Virus record (IMG/VR): IMGVR_UViG_3300013006_000018
Length of the DNA stretch: 64,000 nt
From: a virus
Strand: one strand, 5' to 3'
In this document: piece after piece, positions 1 to 61,785 of the stretch
Layout of the letters: each line of letters begins with the position of its first letter
Position numbering within the stretch: the stretch's first letter is position 1
The notes under the pieces: model-generated
What the model was told of the DNA's origin: nothing
The model's database searches: none
The model's input: the letters and a program-made list of their open reading frames with translations, nothing else
Program-made: the position numbers and the translations under genes

Positions 1-2390
1 GCTGAAGATACAGGCTCTATGATAGTACTATTTGAATTACGATAGTAGAGATCACCATAGTTAACAAAATTTGTATGATATATGTCTTGCTTTTCCAGGA
101 TTGAATCCTGGTTATCGGCGTACAACGTTGTCCGACCAGGTATTCTTAAATTAATAAAATTTGAACGCTCAGTATATAGCGGTTCATTAAAGCTTACAGG
201 GCTACCACAAGGTGACGTTCCGTTTACTAGAAATACAAACCCATCTATACTAGTCACATTAGAAAGCGGTGCTTGATATGTAAAATCTGGAGGATAACCA
301 TAAACAGGTCTATAGCCTGGTGCTGTAGGGTTTGCTGCACCATCAATGAGTTCGCTATAGTAAACCCTATAGGAAGCAGGGTTAAAGCTTGGATTATCGC
401 TCGGATAGTCTATAAGTTCTGCAGATGTCTGTGAAACAAAAGTTAAACCATCCTTATAATTACAACTATAAAACGTCTCTACAGTCTCAGAGCAGAATAT
501 TTCTGGTAAAAAATTATATGAAACAATATTAGTAAATTCGCCTTCTGGTAAACCGAAAGTAGGTACCCCATCATTATAATAAAAAGTGGAAAGCGGTGAC
601 TGATCTGTATAACGCTTTAGTGGGTAGTCTGTATAAGAATAAGGAATATAGTATCCAGTACCTGGTGGCATATTAGTAGTTGTTTTTAACTCAAAATTAT
701 ATATAAAGGGATTTAAGGCCCCGCCATTAATAATAGAACAAAGTTTTAATCCTTCAGATTCTTTTTGTCCAACTACAGAAGGAAGTACCGCCAGAGGCTG
801 TACGAACTTAAATAGCCCGTAGCTATTACCGTAAACATCTGATTTAAATTGAACAAGACTTTTATTTGTCGGTATGAGGGTCTTACTTCTGTTATTTATA
901 GGAAATTTATCAGCGGGTATTAAAGGGTATACATCTTCGTTAGCCCATACATTCTTAAGATATGAAGTAAAGAAATCTTGAGGGTCGGATTGTCTGTGTA
1001 TTCCGTAGTTAATATACTCCAGGGACTGCTCCCTTGACTGATAAGCTCTAAATGTTTGTAGTTTACTATCTGTATATACATCACCAAACCGATATTGATT
1101 TGAAATATCAATTTTATTGAAATAGTTATATTCAATAAATTTTAAGGGCGAATTAAATTCTTCTAGGGTAGTATTAGATATATTACCGTACTTGGATGGA
1201 TCGGGAAATATATAGACAGAATTAGGAGCTAAGGTATCATAATTAAAATATGGTGTAAAGTTGAATGATGTAAATACGGATAACCCTAGTTTATCTGGTT
1301 TAAAGAACCCGCCAACCTCTTTTAATGTCTTTTGATTATTGGTGTCCTCTAGAACAGCAACAGTAGGATATCGCTTATTTACATAATTGGCATATGAATT
1401 TTTTGCTTTATAAACAATACCTGAAACATAATCATAGATAGTTGAACCAGTAGAGACATAGTAAAAATCTGTACCAATATATTTTTCAATTCCTAATTTT
1501 TTAATGTTTAAATTTAAATTTTCATTGGTACCAGTGTTAACAGTATTAATAAAATCACTATCTTTTAAAAAGTAAAATTGTTCGGCAGATGAAGCCGGTG
1601 GTGTAATAGTAAAATTGTTTGTGCCTAATTCTTCTAAGAAGAATGGATAACTTGTAATGGCTTGTATTATTGATCTTGAAAAATCTAACGAAACATACGG
1701 GTCACTATCATAAACGTTTAATTCAAAGTAAGTTTTCCTATCTCCGGAAGGATTATATGCCGTTAAAGGGACGTTGGGGCTAATATCATAATAATAGTCT
1801 GATGTATCATATAACTCCTCAACACCGATATTTAAATTATTTCGTATATCAGAAAGAGAGACATTTAGTGTCTTGATGATATCGGTTATATCTGCTGCTT
1901 CTAATGCTTTTGATATTTCATTATAGATACCTTTTTGTATACCGTAGTTTGATCCACGTAAATTATTCTTAATCGGCGCGGTCTTGACGTCATCTCTAAG
2001 TGTACTATAATAAAGACATATTTCTTTAATTTTCTTCGCAAAAAAAGGAATTACAGTTACTAATTCTCTATTATTATTAAAATCTATATTAGTTAAAAAC
2101 CGTTTTTCATCCGGTGTTATATAGTTTAAGACGATTTCCTTGAGAAGAGTTACATATAGGTCCTTTATAGACGTATTATTTGTAAGTTCTTTATTATTCT
2201 GTACACTATACCAGATGTTTAAATATGTTTGGTATCTATTTAGAAATATTTCAGCTGTATCAAAAATCTTATTATTGTATGTTAACCACTGTTTAAAGGT
2301 AAAGGGTGATGTCTTGTCTAAGCCTGATTTATTGCCAGACGTAATAGACACTTCCAGTGTATTACTCTGTAGTTCAAGTATATCAGGCAT
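1..2390 (-). CDS. large virion/baseplate-associated protein, partial (runs off the window start; absent from ORF track)
   Basis: Manual translation from ATG 2390 (MPDILELQSNTLEVSITSGNK...FKQWL...VIPFFAKKIKEICLYY...); frame still open where checked (VWANEDVYPLIP near 950); AATAAATA 5 nt upstream; lies in the structural cluster. Confidence 0.7.
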   Translation of the reverse strand, partial: MPDILELQSNTLEVSITSGNKSGLDKTSPFTFKQWLTYNNKIFDTAEIFLNRYQTYLNIWYSVQNNKELTNNTSIKDLYVTLLKEIVLNYITPDEKRFLTNIDFNNNRELVTVIPFFAKKIKEICLYYSTLRDDVKTAPIKNNLRGSNYGIQKGIYNEISKALEAADITDIIKTLNVSLSDIRNNLNIGVEELYDTSDYYYDISPNVPLTAYNPSGDRKTYFELNVYDSDPYVSLDFSRSIIQAITSYPFFLEELGTNNFTITPPASSAEQFYFLKDSDFINTVNTGTNENLNLNIKKLGIEKYIGTDFYYVSTGSTIYDYVSGIVYKAKNSYANYVNKRYPTVAVLEDTNNQKTLKEVGGFFKPDKLGLSVFTSFNFTPYFNYDTLAPNSVYIFPDPSKYGNISNTTLEEFNSPLKFIEYNYFNKIDISNQYRFGDVYTDSKLQTFRAYQSREQSLEYINYGIHRQSDPQDFFTSYLKNVWANEDVYPLIPADKFPINNRSKTLIPTNKSLVQFKSDVYGNSYGLFKFVQPLAVLPSVVGQKESEGLKLCSIINGGALNPFIYNFELKTTTNMPPGTGYYIPYSYTDYPLKRYTDQSPLSTFYYNDGVPTFGLPEGEFTNIVSYNFLPEIFCSETVETFYSCNYKDGLTFVSQTSAELIDYPSDNPSFNPASYRVYYSELIDGAANPTAPGYRPVYGYPPDFTYQAPLSNVTSIDGFVFLVNGTSPCGSPVSFNEPLYTERSNFINLRIPGRTTLYADNQDSILEKQDIYHTNFVNYGDLYYRNSNSTIIEPVSS

Positions 2391-2423
2391 TTAATTATTT
2401 ATTAAAAACCTTGTTTTTGTGTT

Positions 2424-2609
2424 TTAAATGTCGGTAGGGTCAGAACTAAAGCAATCTTCTATGTTAAAATTCACAAAAGACATATCGGCCAATTCATCAC
2501 TCGTAAAAAATTCACTAACAGCTATTTCTTCGTCCGGGGTTAATGCTTGATTGTTATCATGTTTTTCTTTTAAGAAATTAAATACTTCTGTTTTATTATT
2601 AAAGTTCAT
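2424..2609 (-). CDS. small acidic hypothetical protein (late)
   Basis: 61-aa ORF fills the gap between two large genes; TAAATA 5 nt upstream of ATG. Confidence 0.55.
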   Translation of the reverse strand: MNFNNKTEVFNFLKEKHDNNQALTPDEEIAVSEFFTSDELADMSFVNFNIEDCFSSDPTDI

Positions 2610-2623
2610 AAAATTATTTAATT

Positions 2624-5173: not shown

Positions 5174-5423
5174 TTATATTATTTATATTATGTGATTTGA
5201 AAATTATCACTAATTGTATCATAACCTATACCATTAAACATCCCTGGTGTGGGGGTTATAGAAGGAGTAATTGACGGTGTTATTGTCACGGAAGGAGTTA
5301 TTGAGGCGGTTACAGTTACTGTGGGGGTTATTGTAGGTGTTGGTGTATTTGTTGCTGTCTGCGACGGTGTAACTGATGCTGTCGGCGTTTTGGTCGGTGT
5401 TATTGAAGGTGTTGGAGAATTTG
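4929..5423. repeat. 88-bp segment duplicated between the two TP-stalk genes (4929-5016 and 5336-5423)
   Basis: Manual alignment: 7 mismatches in 88 nt, last 34 nt identical. Confidence 0.85.
5180..5187 (-). promoter_or_regulatory. gp55-type late promoter TATAAATA
   Basis: Exact T4 late consensus 6 nt upstream of ATG 5173; gp55 is encoded in the window. Confidence 0.75.
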
Positions 5424-12033: not shown

Positions 12034-12081
12034 TATTTATAAAAATAACTATTTTTAAAATAGGTAGGTCGAGAATAAATA
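12034..12081. promoter_or_regulatory. divergent pair of late promoters (TATAAATA minus 12034-41; AATAAATA plus 12074-81)
   Basis: Each is 5 nt from a start codon (12028 and GTG 12087). Confidence 0.7.
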
Positions 12082-12086: not shown

Positions 12087-12713
12087 GTGAATAAGAGATT
12101 TGTCAAATTATTTGAAGCTAATATTACAAGATTTAACCATGGCGGCTTCTTAGCCAGTGATAGAGTTACTTTTATTGACAACGTTCTAAAGAATGATTAC
12201 TTCAAGAAACAGCCTGAAGAAATAGCCGGTGCTGTTACAGCGCTTATGAATTGTGGATTAAACTTAAGAGTAAAGAATATTAAGTCCACGTTTCCAGCAG
12301 TAGGCGGCGCAGGCAACCCTGATAATCTTGGTTATAGCTTTGCAGTAGAGGTTGTACCAGAGATAGCTCCGGGTAAATTTGATTATAATAAAACAGTCAC
12401 AGTACCTGCAAATTTACTTGTAAGGCACGATGACGGTATCAATTTGCCTCCGATACCTGATATATTAAAGCGAGCTGATAACTCTTATATTAAGCCCAAA
12501 TTAGCTTCTGATATAAAACAAGACGAAGTTCCTTTCTACAGACCGCATAGTCAAACACATACTTCTAATGTAGATGGCAAAAATGTTGAGGGTGATCGTG
12601 AACTTTTAAATACCAACACAAAGATACCTTCCTCACCTGCGCACGGTGTTAAAGACCCTGCCATCGGTGACTTCCCCGATAGCTATACAAAAGCTTATCT
12701 TCCTACTGCTTAA
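12087..12713 (+). CDS. putative late head-associated protein (start revised to GTG 12087)
   Basis: Late promoter 5 nt upstream; N-terminus MNKRFVKLFEA with L-x-E site. Confidence 0.6.
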   Translation: MNKRFVKLFEANITRFNHGGFLASDRVTFIDNVLKNDYFKKQPEEIAGAVTALMNCGLNLRVKNIKSTFPAVGGAGNPDNLGYSFAVEVVPEIAPGKFDYNKTVTVPANLLVRHDDGINLPPIPDILKRADNSYIKPKLASDIKQDEVPFYRPHSQTHTSNVDGKNVEGDRELLNTNTKIPSSPAHGVKDPAIGDFPDSYTKAYLPTA

Positions 12714-13635
12714 CGTCAGATAGCTGTATAAAGCAGCTATAACAATTAATTTCTTGATCTATAACAAACGCACTCCTGTACAAATGTTCAGCAATAATAA
12801 TTAAGTATTGTTTTTTAAGCTCGTTATCAGCTTCATTTTTATCTATATGATTAAAAAGAGATCGTAGTAGATTAATATAATCGGAATTAAACTTTTGTTC
12901 GTTTTCAATAAGAGATTTTCTGATAGCAAGTACATTCCCGGATTTAATATTATTCGTTATTAGATCGAGAACGTCACTTTTATTACTTTCAGTTAATAAT
13001 AATTCACCACTCGAACAATTCTTATGTATCTCATTAATACATTTTCTTAGATCAGGGTAAAAAGCTTTAACAAGATGAACGATTTTACTTCTATCATCCT
13101 CCGATACAGTGACGCCTTCATTTTTTAGTATATAGAGACATCTCTTTGCGACCCCAGCTAAGGGCGGTATAAGGTCGATACTTTGGCATCTACTTTGTAA
13201 AGCTGTAATAATTTTGTGCTTGTAATTTGCTGTAAGAATAAATCTTGTTATCTTAGAATACTCTTCCATAGTGTTACGAAGAGCTCGTTGGCCATCTATA
13301 GTAAGACCATCTGTTTCATCTAATACAACTACCTTTACTTTCCCATCAAAACTTCTTGTCTGCGCAAAGCTAGTAACCTTTGTACGGATAGTATCAATCC
13401 CATTTTCATCACTGGCGTTAATGTAAAGATACTGACATTGAAGGATATCATTAACAATGATCTTAGCTAGTGATGTCTTACCGATACCCGGGGTACCAGT
13501 AAATAATAGATTAGGTATTTCTTTCTTCTGTAAGAATGATTCTATTATTCTCTTATTATCATCGGATATAACAAAATCTCCTAATGATTTGGGTCGATAC
13601 TTTTCAACCCATATATTATTAAAATTTAAATTCAT
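12703..13635 (-). CDS. gp44: clamp loader ATPase subunit gp44 (RFC-like)
   Basis: WVEKYRP, GTPGIGKTS, INASDENGID, LDETD, LQSRC. Confidence 0.95.
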   Translation of the reverse strand: MNLNFNNIWVEKYRPKSLGDFVISDDNKRIIESFLQKKEIPNLLFTGTPGIGKTSLAKIIVNDILQCQYLYINASDENGIDTIRTKVTSFAQTRSFDGKVKVVVLDETDGLTIDGQRALRNTMEEYSKITRFILTANYKHKIITALQSRCQSIDLIPPLAGVAKRCLYILKNEGVTVSEDDRSKIVHLVKAFYPDLRKCINEIHKNCSSGELLLTESNKSDVLDLITNNIKSGNVLAIRKSLIENEQKFNSDYINLLRSLFNHIDKNEADNELKKQYLIIIAEHLYRSAFVIDQEINCYSCFIQLSDVKQ

Positions 13636-14086: not shown

Positions 14087-14122
14087 ATATTATGATATAA
14101 AACCCGGAATTCAAGATAAGTA
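14087..14122. promoter_or_regulatory. sigma70-like promoter (minus, TTGAAT-N16-TAATAT, 14087-14114) back-to-back with late-like GATAAGTA (plus)
   Basis: Seen in sequence; 5 and 6 nt from the respective ATGs. Confidence 0.6.
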
Positions 14123-21700: not shown

Positions 21701-21731
21701 AGCTAATAATATTTAACGGAAAGATGTAGGT

Positions 21732-24260: not shown

Positions 24261-24299
24261 CTAATTATTTATCAGGTAAATTTAGTTTAACCTTGAGGT

Positions 24300-24845: not shown

Positions 24846-24860
24846 AGAATTATTTATCCT

Positions 24861-27152: not shown

Positions 27153-27160
27153 TATTTATG
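27153..27160 (-). promoter_or_regulatory. late promoter CATAAATA of tail sheath gene
   Basis: 6 nt upstream of ATG 27146; equivalent GATAAATA boxes at 24851-58 and 24266-73. Confidence 0.7.
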
Positions 27161-29545: not shown

Positions 29546-29550
29546 ATTAT

Positions 29551-29563
29551 TATAAATATTTAA
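29551..29563. promoter_or_regulatory. overlapping bidirectional late promoter (palindrome TAAATATTTA)
   Basis: TATAAATA on plus 5 nt before GTG 29564; TTAAATA on minus upstream of gp17. Confidence 0.65.
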
Positions 29564-30423: not shown

Positions 30424-30455
30424 AAAGAGCCTAACGTAAGTTAGGCTCTTTTTTT
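30424..30455 (+). terminator. rho-independent terminator
   Basis: AAAGAGCCTAAC-GTAA-GTTAGGCTCTTT followed by T-run. Confidence 0.9.
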
Positions 30456-33033: not shown

Positions 33034-33060
33034 AATATATATTTTATGAACTTTTTGATA

Positions 33061-33435
33061 CTAATCAATGATCTTATCTAGAGTATCGCTGACGTGCTTG
33101 ACTGTGTCAATTATAGCTTTAAGTTTTCTTATAGCATCCTGCACCTCGAGTTTTGCTTTAGTATTTTCAGATACTAAGGGAAAATTGAGTGAGGTTTCAA
33201 AGAGCTGTAATGCATTAGATGCATCAACATATATTTGGCCTAGCGAATCTGTTACCGTAGTGAGAGGGAACGGAAGGCTTTTTCTTAATTGTACTTGGTT
33301 CGGAAATTGGGACATCGACTTGTTAAATAGGTCCTTTATAGTAACCTGTTGTGCATTAACCTCTCTTGCAGCCATACCTGTAGTCCACTTGTTATAGTAG
33401 CTTACTGTATCTTCAAACATTAACCTTTTCTTCAC
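33061..33435 (-). CDS. late hypothetical (putative head) protein
   Basis: AATAAATA 6 nt upstream; MKKRLMFED. Confidence 0.6.
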   Translation of the reverse strand: MKKRLMFEDTVSYYNKWTTGMAAREVNAQQVTIKDLFNKSMSQFPNQVQLRKSLPFPLTTVTDSLGQIYVDASNALQLFETSLNFPLVSENTKAKLEVQDAIRKLKAIIDTVKHVSDTLDKIID

Positions 33436-33468
33436 TAAATATATTTATTCTAATATAAATAATAATGT

Positions 33469-35147: not shown

Positions 35148-35174
35148 AAAACTATTTATCAACCAAGTTTATAA

Positions 35175-36300: not shown

Positions 36301-36317
36301 AAAATAACTTATTTAAG

Positions 36318-36644: not shown

Positions 36645-36996
36645 TTATATTATTTATCCTCTTGGAGAGAAATCTACAGCGACCGGAGTAGTCTTGATTA
36701 CATGTTACACCATATTTTACAAGGTATTCAATTATAGTTTCAATACTTTCGGTCTTTAAGGTAAAATTACGGGGGAATCTATTGCCGCCGTCATTCAGCT
36801 CAAAGCATGTTGAGTTATTGTCGCCGCCATCATTATAGCAAGTAATAAAGACAGAGACTTCACTAGGATTAACTAGTACGGTCCATCTACGGGGATCGCT
36901 TTTATTAAAAATAGAGAACACTTTCAAGACAACAAACCCGTTGTCTTTAAGACGTTTTATAAAGTACCCCGGTGTACGTATTTTGTTTTTACTCAT
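36610..36996 (-). CDS. hypothetical protein
   Basis: Coupled to gp45 stop (TAATG). Confidence 0.6.
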   Translation of the reverse strand: MSKNKIRTPGYFIKRLKDNGFVVLKVFSIFNKSDPRRWTVLVNPSEVSVFITCYNDGGDNNSTCFELNDGGNRFPRNFTLKTESIETIIEYLVKYGVTCNQDYSGRCRFLSKRINNINEESQPESVEG

Positions 36997-39000: not shown

Positions 39001-39028
39001 ATTTTATGATAACGAATCTTGAATTCAA
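39001..39028 (-). promoter_or_regulatory. sigma70-like promoter TTGAAT-N16-TAAAAT for gp32
   Basis: -35 contains TGA stop of upstream gene; 6 nt to ATG. Confidence 0.7.
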
Positions 39029-39687: not shown

Positions 39688-39969
39688 CTATGATAATGCA
39701 TTTTTATTAGCGTTCAAATATTTCATTATATATTTACTTTTATATAATCCTGTATCAAACTGCAGAAAACTTTTTATCGCTGAGTAGTCGTTTTCAAAGC
39801 CACAGTACTCCTTAAACAGAGTTCTTACACTCGGATTCTGTAATAGTAGTAAGAATATATTTGCTAAGTTCATTTTTTTTGTCTGAAGTAAGCTAATAAG
39901 AGTACAGAATGAATAAAACAAATGATTGAACTCATATGTGGTTATTGAATGGGATGGGTCTGATTTCAT
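39688..39969 (-). CDS. hypothetical protein
   Basis: 93-aa ORF, coupled to neighbours. Confidence 0.55.
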   Translation of the reverse strand: MKSDPSHSITTYEFNHLFYSFCTLISLLQTKKMNLANIFLLLLQNPSVRTLFKEYCGFENDYSAIKSFLQFDTGLYKSKYIMKYLNANKNALS

Positions 39970-40877
39970 AATGCAGCCAGGCTTTTACTAAAGCGAAGAA
40001 ACTCCTCGTTAAGAGGTCCTCCACCAATATTCTTTGTACCTTCGCCTTTAAAGTTTTCCCTAGCAAATCTGCCTATGTGTAAATCATGGTTTTTGTTTTT
40101 ATCTTTTCTTAAGCTTATATATTTTACATTTAAATTGACTACTATAGCGATATCTGCATCAGCTTTAGTTAGAATATAGTGTGCAACTTCACTCGGAGCG
40201 AAATCTGAGGTTGTACTGACTACTTTATAATTCTTGTCTTCAAAGTTAACATTTGTTGTATATATACTAAGTTGATCGAGAATACCGTTTAATTTATTTT
40301 TATATTGCTTAATAAGATTAGTTTGTTGGTTATTAAATCCTTTAAACCCGTCCTTAAAATCATTATAAAATTTTTCTATTCTGTCTCCTGTATAGCTCCA
40401 GAAGAGAAAGTTTAAATCTTTAGAAAAAGGGTGTTTAAGGTTATAGCTGTCATAATCATTAACTAAGGAAATTAGTAATTTTTGTTCTTGTGTTAGAATA
40501 TCGTTATATTTTTCTTTAAGTCTTTTGTATAGCATTAATGCACAGCTTGAACTGTTGTCAGTAATAATTTTTGCATTTTTAAATTTAGCTACATGCTTTG
40601 GATTATCTTCACCGTGGTTAATATATGTTACATTTTTGAGATCTGCAATATCGTCTGTAAAGCCAAGAATAGCTAAATCAAAGATATAGATTTTTTTAAA
40701 GTTTTCAGATTTATTATTATTAAGAAATGACTCAAAATCTTTACGGAAAGATTTCTCTGTAGATGCCCTATAGGGACATATAAGCTTTGTAAACCATCTG
40801 AAAACTGTATAGCAGCATGCACCATCAAGGTCTGCATCTGTGAAGATAAAAATATTGTCGACAGGTTTTTCTGCCAT
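39966..40877 (-). CDS. DHH-family phosphoesterase homolog with degenerate motifs
   Basis: TDADLDG (motif I), IFDL (II), INHG in place of DHH, VNDYD (IV), GEGTKNIGGG in place of GGGH. Confidence 0.75.
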   Translation of the reverse strand: MAEKPVDNIFIFTDADLDGACCYTVFRWFTKLICPYRASTEKSFRKDFESFLNNNKSENFKKIYIFDLAILGFTDDIADLKNVTYINHGEDNPKHVAKFKNAKIITDNSSSCALMLYKRLKEKYNDILTQEQKLLISLVNDYDSYNLKHPFSKDLNFLFWSYTGDRIEKFYNDFKDGFKGFNNQQTNLIKQYKNKLNGILDQLSIYTTNVNFEDKNYKVVSTTSDFAPSEVAHYILTKADADIAIVVNLNVKYISLRKDKNKNHDLHIGRFARENFKGEGTKNIGGGPLNEEFLRFSKSLAAL

Positions 40878-40912
40878 AAATTTATTTAGAGTTTATAACA
40901 AAGAAATCAATT

Positions 40913-42244: not shown

Positions 42245-42272
42245 ATTTTATCTATGACAAGCAAATATTCAA
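42245..42272 (-). promoter_or_regulatory. sigma70-like promoter TTGAAT-N16-TAAAAT for gp41
   Basis: -35 overlaps upstream TGA stop; 6 nt to ATG. Confidence 0.7.
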
Positions 42273-43620: not shown

Positions 43621-43657
43621 ATAAGAATATATTAATAGAAAGAATAAATATTTCAAG

Positions 43658-45257: not shown

Positions 45258-46329
45258 TATACTTATATTCTAGTGCTAGGCGCTTATCAAGTTCAGGTAT
45301 AATAAACTCTTCATAAAATGCAGGCTCTCTAGCAAAGTTTTTTGCATAACCGAGTTTTTCACCTGTTTTATACTTACCGCAGTCAATACCTACTGTAAAT
45401 GTTGGGCCGTTCTGTACAACAATATTCCTTGCAGCTGCCATAGCTAGAAGACCACTATATTTGTTTAGACCATATTTGAATGAGAGGTACATTTCGGCTT
45501 CAAGGAAGGGCGGTAAGAATCTATTTTTTACAGTTAACACTCTCAATGTTGTTCCGGTATATTTGTTGGCTTCTGCGAGCTTAACATCAGCTAAGAAGTT
45601 ATCGCCTTCGCCTTCTTTTTCGTTTCTTCTTGCAAGCTGTACTAAGATACTAGACATATATATAGGACCTGAACCTCCTGCCTGGCTTTTAACCAAAGTA
45701 GGGTACATAGAGCCCGGATCCTCGTAAGTATGGTTAGTAAAGAGGATAGTAACACCTGCTTTTGCTGCTTTAAATGTTAAAACTCTAAACATACTTTTAA
45801 GAGATTTTGCTCGTAAACCCATATCTGTTGCAGATTTATCTTTTATAACGTCATCGAGCTCTTTCTGTGAGGCCAAATTACCCAAACTATCAATACTAAT
45901 AATAAATTTTCCTTTAGCATCGTTTTCAATAACGCTATCTAGGAAAGTTGAAATTTGATTACGGCACTGATCAATGGTATCAACAGGGACATATTTTGTC
46001 TTTTCAGGATCCAAACCGACGCCCTTGGTGCTGTTTTCATCAATAGCGATCTCAGTATCAAAGATGACTGGAAATATGCCTACTTTTTGAGCGCTAGCAA
46101 GAATCTTGTTTACTATAAAAGTTTTACCGGTTTGACTAGGACCTGAGAAGCCTACTATCCGGCCTTTAGGTACCCCGCCGGTACGACAGCTTCCACCCAG
46201 AATTGCATTCAGTGCAAAGCATCCTGTATCAAACCATGTATCGACTTTACTTAAAGCGTTTTCATTTAAGAATGACGCTTCACTATTTAAATTATCTAGA
46301 GATGCGAAAATTTTATTAAGATCTTTCAT
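45214..46329 (-). CDS. uvsX: RecA-like recombinase UvsX
   Basis: DTG..ALNAILGG, GPSQTGKT, FDTE, IDSLGNL, DMG.RAK, TNHTY, KNRF; start 46329 fits promoter 46336-63. Confidence 0.93.
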   Translation of the reverse strand: MKDLNKIFASLDNLNSEASFLNENALSKVDTWFDTGCFALNAILGGSCRTGGVPKGRIVGFSGPSQTGKTFIVNKILASAQKVGIFPVIFDTEIAIDENSTKGVGLDPEKTKYVPVDTIDQCRNQISTFLDSVIENDAKGKFIISIDSLGNLASQKELDDVIKDKSATDMGLRAKSLKSMFRVLTFKAAKAGVTILFTNHTYEDPGSMYPTLVKSQAGGSGPIYMSSILVQLARRNEKEGEGDNFLADVKLAEANKYTGTTLRVLTVKNRFLPPFLEAEMYLSFKYGLNKYSGLLAMAAARNIVVQNGPTFTVGIDCGKYKTGEKLGYAKNFAREPAFYEEFIIPELDKRLALEYKYNANEAPPEEEEAKD

Positions 46330-46363
46330 TATCATATTTTATATTATTCCTTTTAAGAATCAA

Positions 46364-46402
46364 TAAAATACCCTACATATTTTAGGTATGTAGGGTATTT
46401 TA
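46364..46402. terminator. 16-bp-stem hairpin, probable bidirectional terminator
   Basis: TAAAATACCCTACATA-7nt-TATGTAGGGTATTTTA perfect inverted repeat. Confidence 0.8.
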
Positions 46403-46797: not shown

Positions 46798-46827
46798 ATA
46801 CTTATATTATGAAAATACATTTTAAAA

Positions 46828-49419
46828 TCAACTACCATCTTTTAATAGATCGAATAGATCAGTCTGAACCTGATTACCGGGCGTCTTTAGCTTCCAATTT
46901 ACCGCTTGATAGAAACGATCAATAATGCTATATACAATTTTTGTAAACATAAGTTCATGGTCCGGTTTAAAGCTATCTTTAAACTCCTTGGGGTAATAAT
47001 ATTTGTAACCTAGCACAGAAATACCAAATTTATTAGGCTGTTGGGTGTAAAAAAACTTAACCTTATCTCCGGAGGATAACTTTTCGTATGTCTTATCTAT
47101 ATTAAATCTTTCTAGTAGTTTGTTATGGTAGTATGCCGCTTTGACATGGATGGGCATATGCTTAGCGGTTTTAAAGCCGTCACATTCTGGTGCATACTTT
47201 TCATATCCCTTTATACCCATTGTAAATGCTATATCTTCAACAGGTAGTTGTTTGAATATATCATATGTTTCGTTGAAGATTTTATTGGTTTCTTGCAGGT
47301 TTTTAGTCAAAAGCATAGTCTCGATAATTTTCTTTACCTTCGGCTTGATGGGCGTTGGCATAGTAGTACGTACTACCTCAACACCTGTATACTTAAACTT
47401 GTCACAAGGTATACCTTCTTCATCTAAAATGTGTATTACATACCTCTTTTTTTGTAGAAAGAGACCAACGTCTGCTATCGCTTCCCTTTTAAAATTTAGC
47501 CGGCAATCAATAGATCTTAACGATTCCGCGCCCCACTTCTTAATTTCTACATTCAAGTAATCTTCTATCTCTTGCACGATTTTATAATATTCCGATGTTA
47601 TCTTACCCTTTGAATCACATAACTTGATTCCAAGCTTCTCAACTAAAGGCTTAATAGAAATATAAGAACTATCCGTATCATTGTATATGATCGGTGTATT
47701 GGTGCTAAGCTCTTCATCTGTCATATTAGTCTTACTTTTTATAAACTCTGTTAATAATTTGTTTGACTGCTTTATAACAGATTGACCGGTAAGAGTAATC
47801 GATTCAGCGAGTTGATCATCCCCGAGAGGGCTATGCTTATTACCAAAATATCCGTAGATGGTATTAATTAAGATTTTTATTGTATGCTGTTTAACGTTAG
47901 TGTTTTCAATCTGATGCTGTATATCTTTGTACTCGGGTGTACCTTTTTCAATAGTTAAAATCTTTCTTTTTAATGTCTTTAAAACTTTTTTAAGCACGAC
48001 CCGTTTTTCATAATAGTAATCTACCGTAATAGGGATAATACCCTTTTCTTTCTGAGAGAACATAACTTTTGCTTTAGAAATAGCTATTTGTTCCTTCTCA
48101 ATAAAATTAACAAAGTTTTCATGTGAAAGCTTAAAGGTCTGACCGTTGACATGTTCAATTGTTATTTCCTTATCTGTCTTTTCTGTGATAACACCGACCT
48201 TTGTTTCGGGTGATAGATTTAAAGTGATCATTACGTTTGGATATAGACTGTTCGCGTCAAAAGAGATTATATGCTCTTGAAATCCAGATTTTGGTTCACT
48301 TACATAAGCACCTTCATTCTTACCGTCCTCTTTTACATCCTTATTAAACGTCGGTATTCTTTGATTGCGCTGTCGTGCTTTTATAGCACATAACCCTGTA
48401 ATAACGGATAGAGACCCTAGAGCACCTTCAAATGTTGTTAATCCTGCGTACGCTATCATACGTAATAAAGAAAGATATTGGAGCTTACTTTCTAATCTTA
48501 CCAATAGATTTACGTCTTGTACGTTGTATTCGACAAATAAATCCCAATTAGTGTCAGCTAGATTGGAAAGGTTTGTACCACCAAAATCAATCTTACTTTC
48601 ACCCAGTTCGGTGTTGCCAATATTATCCAGCTTATATGATTCACGTAGAACAGGGCAAAAGCGTTTATATATATCCAGGTAATCAACGCAAGAGACACCC
48701 TCTATATGCCACCTTGTTTGCTCTCTACCGAACTTACCAAGGAATGTGCGTGGTCGTATTGTATTGATTGGTGACAACCGTCTCGCTTCATTTTCTCCCA
48801 ATATCTTTACAATACGATTTACAATATAAGGTATATCAAAGAATTCACTATTCCATCCAGAAAGAATATCTGGGTAGTCAGCTTCTAAGAAACATAGAAA
48901 TTTTGTAAATAATTCCTTCTCCGTCTTACAATAGATATAAGTTGAGTTATCTTTTATCTTATTGTACGGCTTAATCCCCCATGTATAGAAATGTTTACGA
49001 ATAGAATCATATATTGTTATAATATTAACGGTATGTAATGGGTTTTCAGGAATGGGAAATTCATCTGGACTGTACGTTTCGATATCAATAAAATAAACTT
49101 TCAACTCATGCTTATTAAAGTCATCTGTTTCGTTTGTCTGCCAGAAAGAATCTATTAAAAATTGCTGCTGGGCATTAAAGTTTTCAAATAAGCGCTCTAT
49201 TTTATTGTCTTTTAGATATCTATATCTATCAGCTTGAGTACGGAATGATTTTTTCTTAAGCTTGGTATTAAATATGCTTGTACAGTCGGCTTGGTTGTTG
49301 GTTTCAAGAAAAATATACGGATTGAAAGTTGCATCATACTGTATTCTTTTACCGTTTTCATCCCACGTAAACAGGCGCATAACCTGCTGACTGGGTATAT
49401 ATGCACAATTCCTATACAC
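46828..49419 (-). CDS. gp43: family B DNA polymerase gp43
   Basis: DIET, GWNSEFFDIPY, YNVQDV exonuclease motifs; FDANSLYP, KILINTIYG, YNDTDS, KKRY. Confidence 0.97.
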   Translation of the reverse strand: MYRNCAYIPSQQVMRLFTWDENGKRIQYDATFNPYIFLETNNQADCTSIFNTKLKKKSFRTQADRYRYLKDNKIERLFENFNAQQQFLIDSFWQTNETDDFNKHELKVYFIDIETYSPDEFPIPENPLHTVNIITIYDSIRKHFYTWGIKPYNKIKDNSTYIYCKTEKELFTKFLCFLEADYPDILSGWNSEFFDIPYIVNRIVKILGENEARRLSPINTIRPRTFLGKFGREQTRWHIEGVSCVDYLDIYKRFCPVLRESYKLDNIGNTELGESKIDFGGTNLSNLADTNWDLFVEYNVQDVNLLVRLESKLQYLSLLRMIAYAGLTTFEGALGSLSVITGLCAIKARQRNQRIPTFNKDVKEDGKNEGAYVSEPKSGFQEHIISFDANSLYPNVMITLNLSPETKVGVITEKTDKEITIEHVNGQTFKLSHENFVNFIEKEQIAISKAKVMFSQKEKGIIPITVDYYYEKRVVLKKVLKTLKRKILTIEKGTPEYKDIQHQIENTNVKQHTIKILINTIYGYFGNKHSPLGDDQLAESITLTGQSVIKQSNKLLTEFIKSKTNMTDEELSTNTPIIYNDTDSSYISIKPLVEKLGIKLCDSKGKITSEYYKIVQEIEDYLNVEIKKWGAESLRSIDCRLNFKREAIADVGLFLQKKRYVIHILDEEGIPCDKFKYTGVEVVRTTMPTPIKPKVKKIIETMLLTKNLQETNKIFNETYDIFKQLPVEDIAFTMGIKGYEKYAPECDGFKTAKHMPIHVKAAYYHNKLLERFNIDKTYEKLSSGDKVKFFYTQQPNKFGISVLGYKYYYPKEFKDSFKPDHELMFTKIVYSIIDRFYQAVNWKLKTPGNQVQTDLFDLLKDGS

Positions 49420-49425: not shown

Positions 49426-49453
49426 ATTTTACGATACTAAAATACGAAATCAA
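49426..49453 (-). promoter_or_regulatory. sigma70-like promoter TTGATT-N16-TAAAAT for gp43
   Basis: -35 overlaps upstream TGA stop; 6 nt to GTG. Confidence 0.7.
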
Positions 49454-50661: not shown

Positions 50662-50676
50662 ATGAAGTAATTAATG

Positions 50677-52482
50677 TTAAGCAGGCAGATAATCAACCCG
50701 ACGTGTTATACTATTACGCTTCTCAAGAAATATGACATCACCCGATGCAGACTTAACACTTTCTTTTCTGTGACTAATAATCATTATAGCTTCATTATAC
50801 TCTTGTACTCTCTCATTGAGAATATTGATTACAAGATCGACGCCTTTTTCGTCTAAGCTCGAATCAAACAGTTCATCATATATACTGAAATTATAGGTCA
50901 CATCGCCCTGTAGTCTACGGATATCCATAAAGGCAAATAGACAAGATAGATCAATATTCTTACGCTCAGCTCCGCTAAAATTAAAATACGAACATGTCTT
51001 TCCTTTATCATTAATAATCTCTTCTTCAAAATACTCATTAAAAGTACAGTGACAATTAGCATCCATTTTTTTGAGATAGTATATAAGTTTTGAGTTGAAT
51101 AATTGCAGAATTTTTTTAACAATATAAGCTTTGACACCCTCTTCGGATACTACAAATTTAGCAGTTTCCTGGAGTTTAATTTTTTTCTTAAATTCATCAA
51201 TATTCTTATTAATAATAGTGAGTTTTATATTTTGTTCTTCAATTAAGCTATCAAAATTTTTGGCAGTTGTTTTTAAATCTTTTAAATCTTGTTCTAACTC
51301 TATCTGCCATGCTTCAAGCTGCTTTTTTCTGTTTAACGTATTTTCGTGGTCTCTTTTCTCTAGATGCGATTCATTAATCTTTTGAACCAACACACTTATC
51401 TTATCTTCGATTTTATGTTCTAAAGCTTCAAGCTTATTAATATCATCTTCATTTTGAGTAATATCTTTGTTATATTCTTCAATTGTACTACCGATTTTTT
51501 CTTTCTCGGTTTTAATATGTTCCGCGTCCATGTCTTTTATGTCTCTAAGGCATACCGTACACTTACCTTTTAAGGTATCAATAGTAGCATACTGCTTATT
51601 GAGTTGCTTTATAAGCGTTTGTTTTTCCGAGATGTTATGACGTATTTTTATTAGCTTATTGTCTATCTTCTTAATATTTTCTTTTTGTTCCTTGATTGAA
51701 GCTTCGGTCTCAGAAACATTATGCTCTTTAAACGGTTTAATTTTTTTCTCAATAATAGATAATTCTTCAGCATTATTCTTTTTTCTTGTTTCGTACTTTA
51801 TCCTGCGCGTAGTAAGGTCCTGTTCTGAAGTGGTTTTTTGCTTTTCAAGACTTTCAACTGTACGTTCTATTTCCTCATATCTTGTTGTTTCAATATCATA
51901 TTCACGTTTTGTCTCGCTTATATCTTCTTTAAGCTTTAGAAGCATATCACTAAAGACACTTAAATTAAAAATATCTTCAATAAATTTTCTTTTATCTTGC
52001 TTCTTTTTAGCCATGAATGGTATTGTATTATTAATAGTCATTATGACACAGTTTTGGAAGACATCTTCAGTACAGCATAATAACTGTGAGATATATTCGT
52101 TAGTATTTGTTATACTGTCTCGTGTAATATCTTTACCGTTAAGCTTTAGATAACAGCGTGATGGCTCTATACTTCTTGTGATTTGAATAACATCTGTATT
52201 ACCAGCGTTTTGAATATCTATATCTAGGGTAACAACACAATTGCTTTTATTAATGTTATTAACAATAAGTTCCTTCTTTAAATCTCTTAAAGTGTTACCG
52301 AATACACCGAAATAGATAGCATCGGCAATGGTCGACTTACCAACCCCGTTTCGGCGATCTTCTTTATCCCGATTAACACCGGTAATTACATGCAATCCTG
52401 GTTTAAATTCAACCATGACGGGTTCTTCGCCGACTGAAAGAAAGTTCTTTATTGTAACTTTTTTAAATAAAATAGTCTTCAT
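50677..52482 (-). CDS. gp46: recombination endonuclease ATPase subunit gp46 (Rad50/SbcC-like)
   Basis: KNFLSVG, NGVGKST, CTVC hook, FSGAE, YDELFDSSLD, IISH. Confidence 0.95.
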   Translation of the reverse strand: MKTILFKKVTIKNFLSVGEEPVMVEFKPGLHVITGVNRDKEDRRNGVGKSTIADAIYFGVFGNTLRDLKKELIVNNINKSNCVVTLDIDIQNAGNTDVIQITRSIEPSRCYLKLNGKDITRDSITNTNEYISQLLCCTEDVFQNCVIMTINNTIPFMAKKKQDKRKFIEDIFNLSVFSDMLLKLKEDISETKREYDIETTRYEEIERTVESLEKQKTTSEQDLTTRRIKYETRKKNNAEELSIIEKKIKPFKEHNVSETEASIKEQKENIKKIDNKLIKIRHNISEKQTLIKQLNKQYATIDTLKGKCTVCLRDIKDMDAEHIKTEKEKIGSTIEEYNKDITQNEDDINKLEALEHKIEDKISVLVQKINESHLEKRDHENTLNRKKQLEAWQIELEQDLKDLKTTAKNFDSLIEEQNIKLTIINKNIDEFKKKIKLQETAKFVVSEEGVKAYIVKKILQLFNSKLIYYLKKMDANCHCTFNEYFEEEIINDKGKTCSYFNFSGAERKNIDLSCLFAFMDIRRLQGDVTYNFSIYDELFDSSLDEKGVDLVINILNERVQEYNEAIMIISHRKESVKSASGDVIFLEKRNSITRRVDYLPA

Positions 52483-53540
52483 TTACACTTTAGATATAAA
52501 TCTGTACAATATTTTGTAACGCTTTCTTTTTCTTCAATTTCTAATAGGTTAATGAATTCACTAATAGCTTGGGTTATATCAATGCCCCCTAAATCGTATT
52601 TATTTTCCTCAGCTACATTGAGTTTATCAACAGCTAGTGAATAATCGACAGATAATGATTGCGGTTTATGGAGGGTTAATTTCTTGATAAGGCTGTCAAT
52701 ATTCTCACTTGACATCTTCTTATCTATAACAAGCTTGACGATATTTTTATTTAAAGCTGTCTTGATGTTATCTGTTTCGAGAGACTCGTTGCTAAGAACA
52801 TCTGATAATAATAATTTTTTATGTTTTGGTGAAACATTATTTTCAAAGAATTCATAGCTAATGTCTTTAAAATCTAAAATATGATACCCTTTTGAAGAAC
52901 CAGCATCACCAAAGTCCATTTCGAAAGGGTTGCCTAGATAAATAATTTTACCTTCATCATACTTTCTTTCATCACGCAGATGAAAATGACCTGAAAATAT
53001 AAAGCGTGCATGTTTAAGAAGATCTTTTGATTTTACCCCCTCTTCACACAACTTATATGAGTTCATTTTAAAACTTTCAATTTCAAGATGACCAAATATA
53101 ATATCCGACTTACCAATTTTATTTAATTCAGAGTTCCAGGGTAAAAAAGTGCATTTCTTACCGTGGATCATAACGGTACATACTTCGCTTATAACATTAA
53201 TATTATCCCACCCATGCAGAATAGAGAGCGAATTAACACCGGTGCGGTCTTTATAGAATGAATCGTGATTACCTACAAGTATACAGATATTAAAATCTTT
53301 CCATACCTTTAGGATTTCGCTTACAACATGTATTGTATTGACAGCAATTTCGTCGCGGTAATGATAGAGGTCACCAAGAATAAGAATATCTTCAATATCT
53401 TTTTCCTGTAACTCTGTTTTTAGCCATTCAGCCCACTTGAGAGCTGTTTCATGCCAAAAAGAACTATTCTGATGTACCCCTATATGAAGATCGGATATAC
53501 AACAGACTTTACTGTTCCGTACTGTTACTTCTTTTTGCAT
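52479..53540 (-). CDS. gp47: recombination endonuclease subunit gp47 (Mre11/SbcD-like)
   Basis: SDLHIG, GDLY, GNHD, FGHLE, SGHFH. Confidence 0.95.
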   Translation of the reverse strand: MQKEVTVRNSKVCCISDLHIGVHQNSSFWHETALKWAEWLKTELQEKDIEDILILGDLYHYRDEIAVNTIHVVSEILKVWKDFNICILVGNHDSFYKDRTGVNSLSILHGWDNINVISEVCTVMIHGKKCTFLPWNSELNKIGKSDIIFGHLEIESFKMNSYKLCEEGVKSKDLLKHARFIFSGHFHLRDERKYDEGKIIYLGNPFEMDFGDAGSSKGYHILDFKDISYEFFENNVSPKHKKLLLSDVLSNESLETDNIKTALNKNIVKLVIDKKMSSENIDSLIKKLTLHKPQSLSVDYSLAVDKLNVAEENKYDLGGIDITQAISEFINLLEIEEKESVTKYCTDLYLKCK

Positions 53541-54139
53541 TAGTCTTGGGCGTTATAATTATCATCGTCAGGCTCTACATAGATAAATACATTTCCGAAT
53601 TCATCTTTTTTTGCCATTGTTTCGGTATATACCTTTTCTTTATATTCGTTTAATACCTCATGATGCTTCTTTTCTTTCTTGATACGATTAATAAAAGCAT
53701 GGAAAGCAATAGTTGTAAAATATGAGAACGGGCTAAACCCTGAATCTAATCTAAACTTTTTATTTTTTAAAGCAGAAAACATCTTTACAACAGCATCCCC
53801 TATCATCTCGTCTTTATAGGAATAATTAATAAAGTTAGTAGCAAACGATAAGCCGTTTGCAATCTTTATGATACTTTCCCCGAGCTTTTCGCTTATATGT
53901 TCAGAGTTATAGAAGGTACGTATTTGCTCCTCGAATTCTCTACTATTGACATAATGAAGTTTATCCTTTGGCTTGACTTTGATCTTTTTAACTTCTTCAA
54001 TTTTTTTAGTTAAAATCTTGATATCCGGATCATTGATATCAATACCCCCTCCGATGGCTAACTCTTCTGCAAGAGTATGCACTTCTTCTTTAAGGTTCTT
54101 GGATGGTTTTGATGTTGACTTTAATGGTCTCTTTTTCAT
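53540..54139 (-). CDS. gp55: late transcription sigma factor gp55
   Basis: HYVN, KIANGLS..NFINYSYKDEMIGDA, PFSYFT.IAF.AFINRIKKEKK. Confidence 0.92.
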   Translation of the reverse strand: MKKRPLKSTSKPSKNLKEEVHTLAEELAIGGGIDINDPDIKILTKKIEEVKKIKVKPKDKLHYVNSREFEEQIRTFYNSEHISEKLGESIIKIANGLSFATNFINYSYKDEMIGDAVVKMFSALKNKKFRLDSGFSPFSYFTTIAFHAFINRIKKEKKHHEVLNEYKEKVYTETMAKKDEFGNVFIYVEPDDDNYNAQD

Positions 54140-55918: not shown

Positions 55919-55952
55919 TAGTTAAATAATAATATATACAAAGTAGAAATCA

Positions 55953-56240
55953 ATGAGCCTATTTGAAAAAATATTTTTAAAGTTATTGGAAGAAGATATG
56001 ACGTCTGGAGGAGAAGGAAGTGTATTTGGTAGTAACGACGGTCAGGATATTGGATCCTATGGAAACCAATTCCCCTCTAACAACGACAATGCGTATGCAG
56101 CAAAAGATCCTAGAAAGCTTTCACCTTATGGTCCTGCAGGAGCAGTCTTAGGTGCAAAAGTTTCAAAAAAGAAGACAAAGGGGAAAAAGAAGGGCTCGAA
56201 GGTGACAGTAAAATTTCCAGTGCAGAGACGAATGTTCTAG
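55953..56240 (+). CDS. small late (putative head internal) protein
   Basis: MSLFEKIFLKLLEED, basic C-terminus. Confidence 0.6.
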   Translation: MSLFEKIFLKLLEEDMTSGGEGSVFGSNDGQDIGSYGNQFPSNNDNAYAAKDPRKLSPYGPAGAVLGAKVSKKKTKGKKKGSKVTVKFPVQRRMF

Positions 56241-56241: not shown

Positions 56242-56658
56242 ATGACAGATACCGGCCACTGGATTATTAAAGAAGGGGTCGAGCTTAGTGAGGATGCATA
56301 TGGTTTTATTTATGAAATAACAAACACTGTTAACGGTAAAGTCTATATAGGTAAAAAGCAGTGTATGTATAAAAAGAAAAAGAGACCGTTAAAAGGTAAG
56401 AAGAAAAACAGGATTCATATGGAAGAGTCTGACTGGAAGACATATACAAGCTCATCGAACTATCTTAACGAAGATATTATAAAGTATGGTAAAGATAAAT
56501 TTATTTTTAAAATTATTAAGCAGTGTTATTCAAAGTGGGAGCTAGCGTATTTTGAAATAAAAGAACAAATAGAAAGAGAAGTTTTACTGTCCGATAGATT
56601 TTATAATGGTATTATGAATGTTAGGATTGGAAGACCACCAAAAGGCTTGAAAGTATAA
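56242..56658 (+). CDS. GIY-YIG nuclease, catalytic domain only
   Basis: GFIYEITN..NGKVYIGKKQ; conserved E and FYNG. Confidence 0.8.
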   Translation: MTDTGHWIIKEGVELSEDAYGFIYEITNTVNGKVYIGKKQCMYKKKKRPLKGKKKNRIHMEESDWKTYTSSSNYLNEDIIKYGKDKFIFKIIKQCYSKWELAYFEIKEQIEREVLLSDRFYNGIMNVRIGRPPKGLKV

Positions 56659-56681
56659 TCCTTATCTAATATAATAGATCG

Positions 56682-57242: not shown

Positions 57243-57260
57243 ATTAGCATAAATATTATT

Positions 57261-58255: not shown

Positions 58256-58292
58256 ATAAATATTTATGCAAAAAACGATAAATATCTTTACT

Positions 58293-59700: not shown

Positions 59701-59749
59701 TACATTATTTTTATCATATGTACACCGTTTTTCAAGATAAATAATATAA

Positions 59750-61013: not shown

Positions 61014-61022
61014 CTCCAAGAG

Positions 61023-61129
61023 TTGATTTTTCACACATTTTTTATATAATATTATAGGTATAGAAAAGACTGTCTTTGTGTATATAGTATCCCCTCTTTA
61101 TGTTGATTAGTGAATCCATATACTATAAT
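61023..61129 (+). promoter_or_regulatory. tandem sigma70-like promoters upstream of queD
   Basis: TTGATT-N16-TATAAT (61023-50) and TTGATT-N15-TATAAT (61103-29). Confidence 0.55.
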
Positions 61130-61137
61130 TACATATA

Positions 61138-61785
61138 ATGAAATACAGCAGTACAAAGATTTTAGAATTAGGTAGTTGTGCATTTCGTCAACCAAAAGCT
61201 ACAAGCCATTGCAGATTTTTACATGGTTATAGATTACAAGCTAAATTTTGGTTTACCTGCAATGAACTAGATGAGAATGGTTGGGTTGTGGATTTCGGTG
61301 GCTTAGATGGTCTGAAAAAAGAGTTACAAAAGATGTTTGATCATACAACATGCATTGCATTAGATGACCCATATCTCAAAGATTTTGAAGAACTCAATAG
61401 AAAAGGAATTATCGATCTTCGGGTGTTTCCTTATGGTGTAGGCATAGAGAAGTTTGCAAAAGAGGCATATAATATAGCTAATAAAAATGTTAAAGCGTTG
61501 ACTAATGAAAGATGCTGGGTCACGAAAGTTGAAATGTGGGAACATGAAAAGAACTCTGCAATATATGAGAATGAACCCTTAGTGACAAGTGTATCTGTAG
61601 GTTCTTTAGCACCTACCTTGGTATCTAATCCGGAACCGGTGCAAGATATACAACAAGTACAACCTAAAATTGAACCCTTAAGTCAGCCGGTCGCAGAACA
61701 TAATCCGAATGCTGCGCCTCTTTATACAAAAAAGAGTTCCGGTTATAGTAATTTATTTGGCGGGACAAGCTGGGGTACCAAATGA
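61138..61785 (+). CDS. queD: 6-carboxy-tetrahydropterin synthase QueD with C-terminal extension
   Basis: CAFRQ, SHCRFLHGY, GWVVDFG, FDHT, G.EKFA, WEHEKNSA. Confidence 0.9.
   Translation: MKYSSTKILELGSCAFRQPKATSHCRFLHGYRLQAKFWFTCNELDENGWVVDFGGLDGLKKELQKMFDHTTCIALDDPYLKDFEELNRKGIIDLRVFPYGVGIEKFAKEAYNIANKNVKALTNERCWVTKVEMWEHEKNSAIYENEPLVTSVSVGSLAPTLVSNPEPVQDIQQVQPKIEPLSQPVAEHNPNAAPLYTKKSSGYSNLFGGTSWGTK

Follow-up and report, generated by a model that had tools for sequence, protein, structure and literature searches.

Promoters abutting start codons, and probable leaderless expression, in an uncultured T4-like phage

A 64,000-nucleotide stretch of viral DNA, IMG/VR record IMGVR_UViG_3300013006_000018 (here called the window), is, judged by its genes, part of a large uncultured T4-like phage. 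Most of the genes that are not coupled to an upstream neighbour carry one of two promoter boxes directly before the start codon: a sigma70-type promoter, found before replication and nucleotide-metabolism genes; or TAAATA, a T4-type late box, found before virion genes. It is quite probable that nearly all transcription units begin at the start codon, and that expression is leaderless or coupled. T4 is the textbook example of how a phage expresses its genes, with timed promoters, leaders that bear Shine-Dalgarno (SD) sites, and translational repressors and nucleases that act on these leaders. A large environmental branch of the T4 lineage appears to keep the host-sigma-early, gp55-late logic, with promoters butted against the start codons and free of SD sites.

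The proposed mechanism has two temporal branches. Host RNA polymerase and its primary sigma factor would transcribe the early and replication genes, from promoters of the form TTGAtt-N16/17-TAtAAT whose −10 hexamer ends 6 nucleotides (nt; range, 5-8) before ATG or GTG. Late and virion genes would be transcribed by polymerase carrying a phage gp55-type sigma factor, from (A/T)TAAATA boxes ending 5 nt (range, 5-7) before the start. Because these are normal −10-to-+1 distances, the A or G of the start codon would be the first, or nearly the first, base of the mRNA. Ribosomes, most likely 70S, would bind such an mRNA directly without an SD site, and the downstream genes of a unit would be translated by stop/start coupling, also without one. 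Where transcription starts and how ribosomes bind are both predictions from the DNA.

Boxes anchored to start codons

A set of 68 genes was drawn from coding potential, with a few starts curated. Twenty-one are late-type, with TAAATA 5-9 nt upstream (11 at 5 nt, 6 at 6, 2 at 7, and 2 at 9). Fifteen are early-type, with TTG(A)-N15-18-TAnnn(T/A) 5-8 nt upstream; the match at one of them, the coupled gene 22484, probably arose by chance. Stop/start coupling to a same-strand upstream gene, by overlap (e.g., ATGA) or a gap of at most 10 nt, accounts for 26 genes, whose gaps run from −52 to +10 nt and are mostly −4, −1 or 0-5. A promoter box at the −10-to-+1 distance precedes 36 of the 42 non-coupled genes (36 of 68 overall).

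These counts bear out a preliminary description of the window, which had reported two motif classes at this distance from starts, with most other genes coupled. Each of the 18 late sites that it named has (A/T/C)TAAATA ending 5-8 nt ahead of ATG, GTG or TTG on the strand it gave. Likewise, TTGA(A/T)(A/T)-N15-18-TA(A/T)(A/T)A(T/A) ends 5-8 nt before the start of all ten of its early genes. The only doubtful start among the late sites is 58293, a TTG that opens a 43-amino-acid open reading frame (ORF); an ATG at 58266 sits 3 nt past TATAAATA. Its phrase "genome-wide" stands in the sense that promoter-adjacent genes are about half of the total, with most of the others coupled to them.

Anchoring was evaluated independently of gene calls by scoring, for each motif copy on both strands, the presence at each offset of a downstream start codon opening an ORF of at least 60 amino acids. 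Of 43 ATAAATA copies in the window, 17 are followed by such a start at offsets 5-7, and none at offsets 0-4 or 8-20. The early pattern TTGA-N18-TAnnnT (16-nt spacer) occurs 46 times, with ten cases at offsets 6-8 and about 0.3 per offset elsewhere. A second control shuffled the 40-nt upstream region of each gene 5000 times. TAAATA lies at offsets 5-7 in 19 genes against a shuffle mean of 0.59 (maximum, 5), and the strict sigma70-type pattern is found at 11 genes against a mean of 0.165 (maximum, 3). In an unbiased search upstream of all 68 genes, the top position-specific 5-mer was AAATA at −10 (14 of 68); others were TAAAT at −11 and TTGAT at −35. The motif discovery against shuffled controls that the preliminary description had proposed as a check thus gives start-anchored enrichment of both motifs.

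The two classes differ in form. The late consensus is ATAAATA, with nothing conserved further upstream and no −35 element; ten perfect copies of TATAAATA occur in the window, four of them at starts. The early pattern, TTGA(A/T)(A/T)-N16/17-TA(A/T)(A/T)A(T/A), precedes 15 genes and has −35 and −10 hexamers as in primary-sigma promoters. Loosely defined sigma70-like matches are close to background (83 against 75.6 in shuffles; in a second scan, 98 against 76.5, standard deviation 8.8), so the signal lies in the anchoring to start codons and not in motif abundance. A generic sigma70 scan is uninformative in DNA as AT-rich as this.

SD complementarity was measured as the pairing energy of positions −18 to −4 with the 16S rRNA 3′ tail, with random coding positions as background. 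At promoter-adjacent starts the mean is +0.43 kcal/mol, which is weaker pairing than at the background positions (mean, −1.28; p = 5e-7), and the 5-7 nt between box and codon leave no space for an SD site. Coupled starts do not depart from background: 5 of the 26 reach −5 or lower, compared with 9.3% in the background set (p = 0.09). As a control, the mean for 57 annotated T4 starts is −5.65, and 63% of them reach −5 or lower; the measure therefore discriminates, and the contrast with T4 is real. In the same control, TATAAATA sits 14-28 nt before start codons and has no offset peak of the kind seen in the window. Two earlier claims, that the promoter-adjacent genes have no room for an SD site and that T4 is SD-led, thus agree with these results.

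Could AT-rich intergenic DNA and miscalled starts generate this pattern? The window is only 35% G+C; TAAATA occurs in it 116 times; the ATAAATA total is not above a rough composition expectation; and some starts were picked with the motif in view. Such an artefact, however, predicts neither the gene-call-free histogram nor the excess over shuffles, and it fails to account for the T4 control without a peak and for start positions and spacing that are conserved in relatives from the first codon onward. Examined on these four grounds, the artefact is unsupported, and its probability is negligible.

Promoters, translation signals and short leaders

The boxes divide by gene function. All 5 recognisable virion genes are late-type and all 11 replication or nucleotide-metabolism genes are sigma70-type (Fisher p = 2.3e-4), the structural versus replication/metabolic split that had been described before. 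The late box precedes baseplate wedge, tail tube, tail sheath and fibre-connector genes, and no replication gene. The sigma70-type promoter precedes genes for dUTPase, gp32, gp41, amidotransferase, UvsX, gp43, glycosyltransferase, UvsY, FolE and QueD. Because this division follows the temporal classes of T4, it argues that the boxes are promoters.

T4 late promoters, TATAAATA, are read by gp55 together with gp33 and the gp45 clamp. Recognition by gp55 had been invoked for the window's late boxes, and a gp55-like late sigma factor gene is indeed encoded at 53540-54139 (−), matching phrog_234 ("late sigma transcription factor") with E 5.8e-25. Its product likely reads the TAAATA boxes. A gp44-like clamp loader gene lies at 12703-13635; neither gp45 nor gp33 was recognised by PHROGs or Pfam in the window, which is part of a genome. 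The T4 late promoter has been described as an 8-base-pair (bp) TATA box at the −10 position, roughly one turn of the helix ahead of the start site (PMC2988020).

The arrangement of the boxes also argues for promoter function. Four divergent gene pairs have a correctly oriented box for each start: 12028/12087, 33435/33469, 43620/43658, and 59700/59750. Divergent gaps run from 18 to 58 nt, the smallest (18 nt) separating the terminase start at 29545 from the late gene at 29564. Genes paired in this way cannot draw on one common upstream promoter. Two further boxes are preceded directly by strong intrinsic terminators, which again implies that the boxes are promoters. In the composite element at 30424-30473 (+), a strong hairpin terminator with T-run (30424-30451) is followed by the late box TTAAATA (30459-30464), 6 nt, and the ATG at 30471. 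In that at 46329-46402 (−), the tail of a 16-bp hairpin terminator (46364-46402) runs into the uvsX promoter, TTGATT-N16-TAAAAT (46336-46363), which ends 6 nt before the ATG at 46329.

These observations bear on a different reading, in which the AT-rich boxes are SD-independent translation signals (such as protein S1 or "non-SD" ribosome-binding-site elements) on long polycistronic transcripts from few distant promoters. SD sites are lacking throughout the phage, as such signals would lead one to expect, and AT-rich upstream motifs do act as non-SD signals in some SD-poor lineages; the background frequency of loose sigma70-like matches also counts in its favour. Yet the divergent genes cannot be fed from a common upstream promoter, terminators lie directly ahead of two boxes, and translation signals give no reason for a functional split like that of the T4 temporal classes in a phage with a gp55 homologue. 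The same box, TATAAATA, is the T4 late promoter. Moreover, we know of no role in translation for a −35 TTGA at a strict spacing of 16-17 nt. That fixed spacing is a feature of polymerase, and it is kept upstream of gp43 in 44 of 47 relatives. Translation signals on distant-promoter transcripts are therefore very improbable.

Granted that the boxes are promoters, transcription might still start 1-4 nt upstream of the codon, or at multiple positions. The resulting messages would have very short leaders, also SD-free, and different ribosome-binding kinetics. The offsets do vary, over 5-9 nt in the late class and 5-8 in the early; among relatives of the tail sheath gene (see below) boxes at 6 and 7 nt outnumber those at 5; and the base at −1 is usually T or A. 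The modal offsets (late box, 5 nt; −10 hexamer, 6 nt), however, place +1 at the codon's first base. RNA polymerase favours purines as the initiating base, and in these T-rich spacers the nearest purine is the start codon. The 5′ ends mapped in Thermus phages fall on the A or G of the codon (bioRxiv 10.64898/2026.04.20.719267). Short leaders thus are an unlikely alternative to transcription from the codon itself. Start codons of the promoter-adjacent genes (29 ATG and 7 GTG) are all purine-first, as expected of an initiating nucleotide, and TTG is rare across the clade (1 of 151 and 3 of 72 starts).

Several points tell against initiation at the codon throughout the phage. The start points are taken from consensus distances, and the T4 late box is cited only as lying about one helical turn upstream. 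Offsets of 7-9 nt (e.g., at 21700, 36300, 32194 and 43620) would give leaders of 1-4 nt. Leaderless GUG, as predicted for gp43, is poor in Escherichia coli and Caulobacter (PMC9031893). SD-like sequences precede five coupled genes (GGGAG at 9693, GAGGTG at 30835, and others at 31826, 60168 and 61782), where the host ribosome may still use SD sites. Six of the 68 genes fit neither promoter nor coupling, including the large terminase (29545) and primase (34918) genes; upstream of the latter is TAGAAT-N17-TACAAT-N5-GTG, one mismatch from the early pattern (in the −35), and another of the six, 58421, overlaps a small ORF bearing its own late box. Finally, the starts at 12087, 14081, 43620, 46329 and 59700 were picked using the motif, which is partly circular; this concern is reduced by the gene-call-free test and by PHROG alignments that start at residues 1-15. 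Metagenome contigs beginning at the sheath start codon were sought as indirect transcript evidence, and no pile-up was found.

Relatives, known systems and host

Identity of the gp43 DNA polymerase to its counterparts in isolated phages is only about 30% at best, with top matches in Kyanoviridae (such as pelagiphage Mosig, phage C48C1, and cyanophages), and megablast of 20 kilobases (kb) of the window against phage isolates gave no nucleotide-level match. In IMG/VR, 532 contigs encode a gp43 relative, the best 80 of them 58-94% identical, which points to a large uncultured clade. In 44 of 47 distinct relatives (58-94% amino acid identity) TTG-N16-18-TAnnnT stands 4-8 nt before the gp43 start, at 6 nt in 32 of the 44, and the spacer and flanks are scrambled. 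The relatives' promoters combine TTGAt or TTGACC with TATAAT or TATACT. The gp43 start is GTG in 34 of the 47. Leaderless GUG is efficient in actinobacteria and inefficient in E. coli and Caulobacter, which bears on the predicted 5′-GUG of the gp43 message. The frequency of this codon hints either that host ribosomes accept 5′-GUG or that synthesis of the polymerase is deliberately kept low.

The late box is conserved in the same manner. TAAATA lies 5-7 nt before the tail sheath ATG in 46 of 52 distinct relatives (44-94% identity): at 6 nt in 20, at 7 nt in 17, and at 5 nt in 9. Amino acid conservation of the sheath (MAR...) starts at the first codon. In a few of the most distant sheath relatives (L094, L147, L162 and L163; 45-54% identity) the box stands 15-20 nt ahead of the start, and in one AAGGAG takes its place. 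They look like evolutionary intermediates between a leadered and a fused arrangement, and indicate that the fused layout is derived and maintained rather than constant in T4-like phages.

Across 974 kb of related loci, the commonest sigma70-type offset is 6 nt (77 distinct cases with a 16-nt spacer and 43 with a 17-nt spacer) and the commonest ATAAATA offset is 5 nt; these counts are not independent events. A 198,847-bp relative, 91% complete by CheckV, has the same peaks genome-wide. Its 239 genes, with uncurated longest-ORF starts, include 58 late-type, 39 early-type, 75 coupled, and 66 other, and strong SD sites make up 0-9% of each class against a background of 9.1%. With about 40-50% of genes promoter-adjacent and about a third coupled, this relative supports the description "genome-wide".

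How does this layout compare with known ones? The late boxes belong to the same 8-bp family as T4 late promoters, here (A/T)TAAATA along with several perfect TATAAATA. As in T4, no −35 element is conserved, the box precedes virion genes, and a gp55 homologue is encoded; unlike in T4, the box is 5-7 nt from the start and not 14-28. In the cultured T4-like pelagimyophage HTVC008M, the first 50 kb contain nine TAAATA boxes exactly 5 nt before annotated late-gene starts. HTVC008M is mixed, however, with a strong SD site (AAGGAG) at 42% of starts, whereas the window's clade is at background. Its gp43 shares only about 30% identity with the window's, and the window's clade also fuses early promoters to starts. 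Pelagiphage Mosig and phage C48C1 are mostly SD-led, with occasional fused early promoters (e.g., at C48C1 gp43). The HTVC008M boxes imply that fused late promoters are more widespread in marine T4-like phages, and that the window's clade is an extreme case.

The nearest parallel in expression comes from unrelated phages. In Thermus phages phiYS40 and Lalka27a most transcripts lack a leader, their first base being the A or G of the codon, and this includes transcripts from the phage-specific late promoters (bioRxiv 10.64898/2026.04.20.719267). These phages are unrelated to T4, have TAGGGT as the late −10 element, lack gp55, and infect a thermophile in which leaderless genes are frequent; moreover, their 5′ ends are mapped, whereas those of the window are predicted from DNA. 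Among cellular genomes, a −10 element adjoining the ORF drives leaderless expression as a common mode in Deinococcus-Thermus (PMC12340547), and the leaderless share is 20-46% of genes across Actinobacteria and Deinococcus-Thermus (PMC3160421). Leaderless initiation in mycobacteria requires an ATG or GTG at the 5′ end and needs nothing else, and it makes no use of TTG or CTG (PMC4633059), a rule that matches the exclusive ATG and GTG of the window's promoter-adjacent starts. These genomes differ from the window in being cellular and of high G+C; the phage, at 35%, combines a strong −35 element with a further promoter class specific to the phage. In E. coli, the efficiency of leaderless AUG is about 10%, and that of GUG is close to nil (PMC4633059; PMC9031893). 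The literature yielded no description of leaderless expression in T4-like phages, cyanophages or pelagiphages, or tied to gp55. Given the Thermus phages, leaderless phage expression is known; in a T4-like phage it would appear to be new.

The host was approached from several sides. A scan of cellular genomes for related contigs gave two distant matches in metagenome-assembled genomes, at 28-29% identity, one assigned to Thaumarchaeota and the other to Pseudobdellovibrionaceae; both are probably binned phage DNA. Five long relatives lack WhiB, an actinophage marker, and psbA, a cyanophage marker, and so give no support for an actinobacterial or cyanobacterial host, although absence is weak evidence. 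Bacteroidetes use no SD sites and have the promoter consensus TAnnTTTG (a −7 element). They are an unlikely host, as the early −10 is TATAAT or TATACT and not TAnnTTTG. Contig names of the relatives refer to a Trout Bog Lake hypolimnion assembly and, for more distant ones, to TARA ocean samples.

Ribosomal protein bS21 lies near the mRNA and the anti-SD region of the 30S subunit. Four of the five long relatives encode bS21 (Pfam PF01165, best E 3e-14), for example at G001:C1:167046-167228 (locus L177:1495-1677; also L178-L180); none is encoded in the window, where Pfam and PHROGs found no translation factor. Compared with bS21 chains in the PDB, the relatives' proteins match those of many organisms weakly, with no discrimination between them. 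A link between bS21 and SD-free or leaderless translation is speculation.

A bolder idea is that this whole clade of T4-like phages (over 500 gp43 relatives in IMG/VR) gave up SD-dependent initiation, which could then be used as a weapon against SD-led host translation; alternatively, the layout marks an unusual host. Either proposal is doubtful at present. As a weapon, the phage could disable SD-led host translation while its own leaderless and coupled messages stay immune. Possible means include bS21, or else a nuclease or modifier whose target is the leader of mRNAs, the anti-SD sequence or an initiation factor. As a mark, the layout may denote a host lineage whose ribosomes are efficient on both 5′-AUG and 5′-GUG.

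If initiation does occur at the start codon, even very abundant virion proteins, sheath and tube among them, would come from leaderless messages, which challenges the view that leaderless translation is weak and of minor importance except in a few phyla. Gene finders that model ribosome-binding sites would then misplace starts in these phages, and the promoter boxes would give precise calls. The layout is a marker recognisable from sequence that may narrow down the host, and it raises the question of host translation shut-off. The compact terminator-promoter-ATG design, with gaps of 30 nt, may also serve synthetic biology.

Individual promoters and neighbouring genes

Assignments by PHROGs and Pfam place genes of four kinds in the window: transcription (the gp55-like late sigma factor); virion and packaging (baseplate wedge subunits, tail tube, tail sheath, large terminase); replication and recombination (clamp loader, dUTPase, primase, gp32-like single-stranded DNA-binding protein, gp41-like helicase, UvsX, gp43 DNA polymerase, gp46/47-like nuclease, Dda-like helicase, UvsY); and nucleotide metabolism (QueC, FolE, QueD, glycosyltransferases). 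Most small late genes have no function assignable by Pfam and PHROGs, and no tRNA genes were detected in the window.

Late boxes ending 5 nt before the start are the most numerous. On the (−) strand they lie at 2396-2401 (TAAATA; ATG 2390, a 796-amino-acid appendage gene), 2615-2620 (ATG 2609), 12034-12039 (TATAAATA; ATG 12028, baseplate wedge subunit), 24266-24271 (GTG 24260), 24851-24856 (ATG 24845, tail tube), 35153-35158 (ATG 35147, a 65-amino-acid ORF), and 58261-58266 (ATG 58255). Those on the (+) strand are at 12076-12081 (GTG 12087, with a 58-nt gap to its divergent partner at 12028), 29553-29558 (TATAAATA; GTG 29564), and 57250-57255 (ATG 57261).

At 6 nt, in addition to the composite element at 30424, are boxes at 5180-5185 (−) (TATAAATA; ATG 5173, a baseplate/fibre-connector-like protein), 27153-27158 (−) (ATG 27146, tail sheath), 33442-33447 (−) (GTG 33435), 36651-36656 (−) (ATG 36644), and 59738-59743 (+) (ATG 59750). 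The box at 33442-33447 is back-to-back, in a 33-nt divergent gap, with one at 33456-33461 (+), 7 nt before ATG 33469. The other box at 7 nt, 43645-43650 (+), serves an opposite-strand late gene (ATG 43658) inside the replication module. Two late-like boxes, both TTAAATA on the (−) strand, are 9 nt from the start: that at 21710-21715 (ATG 21700), which would leave a leader of 3-4 nt; and that at 36310-36315 (GTG 36300). The large terminase gene (27839-29563 region, start 29545) has no well-placed box; TATAAT is found at 3 nt and TTAAATA at 12 nt.

Early promoters lie mostly on the (−) strand. Those ending 6 nt before the start are TTGAAT-N16-TAAAAT at 39001-39028 (ATG 38994, gp32-like single-stranded DNA-binding protein, with the upstream gene 30 nt away) and at 42245-42272 (ATG 42238, gp41-like helicase); TTGATT-N16-TAATAT at 46804-46831 (ATG 46797); and TTGATT-N16-TAAAAT at 49426-49453 (GTG 49419, gp43), besides that of uvsX given above. 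At 50668-50696, TTGATT-N17-TAATTA (or N16-TTAATT) ends 6-7 nt before ATG 50661, a glycosyltransferase gene. Other offsets on this strand are found for TTGAAT-N16-TAATAT at 14087-14114 (5 nt; ATG 14081, dUTPase), TTGATT-N16-TAAAAT at 33041-33068 (7 nt; GTG 33033), TTGATT-N16-TATTAT at 55924-55953 (7 nt; ATG 55918, UvsY), TTGAAA-N16-TAAAAA at 59708-59735 (7 nt; ATG 59700, GTP cyclohydrolase I, FolE), TTGAAC-N16-TATAAT at 32203-32230 (8 nt; ATG 32194), and TTGAAA-N16-TAATAT at 43629-43656 (8 nt; ATG 43620, amidotransferase). On the (+) strand, TTGAAA-N17-TATAAT at 56647-56675 ends 6 nt before ATG 56682, and the QueD/PTPS promoter at 61103-61131 can be read as TTGATT-N15-TATAAT (8 nt) or N17-TAATTA (6 nt) before ATG 61138.

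One promoter fits both classes. TTGATT-N16-TAAATA at 40883-40910 (−), 5 nt before the ATG (40877) of a 303-amino-acid gene (39966-40877), could be used early by the host sigma factor and late by gp55. At four (−) junctions (38994/39025, 42238/42269, 46797/46828, and 49419/49450) the stop-to-start gap is identical, 30 nt. Gaps of this size fit a stop codon that lies within the −35 TTGA, with N16, the −10 hexamer and a further 6 nt leading up to the start.

An internal TAAATA-N5-ATG at 29847-29860 (+) lies in frame inside the late gene 29564-30400, with 180 amino acids from its ATG (29858) to the stop. It may be a promoter for an N-terminally shortened product, or it may be there by chance. T4 genes 17 and 21 have internal promoters that give N-terminally shortened products. 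A homing-endonuclease-like ORF with GIY-YIG/NUMOD-type PHROG matches, at 56242-56658 (+), stands between uvsY and a sigma70-promoted gene, and is coupled with a gap of 1 nt to an ORF at 55953.

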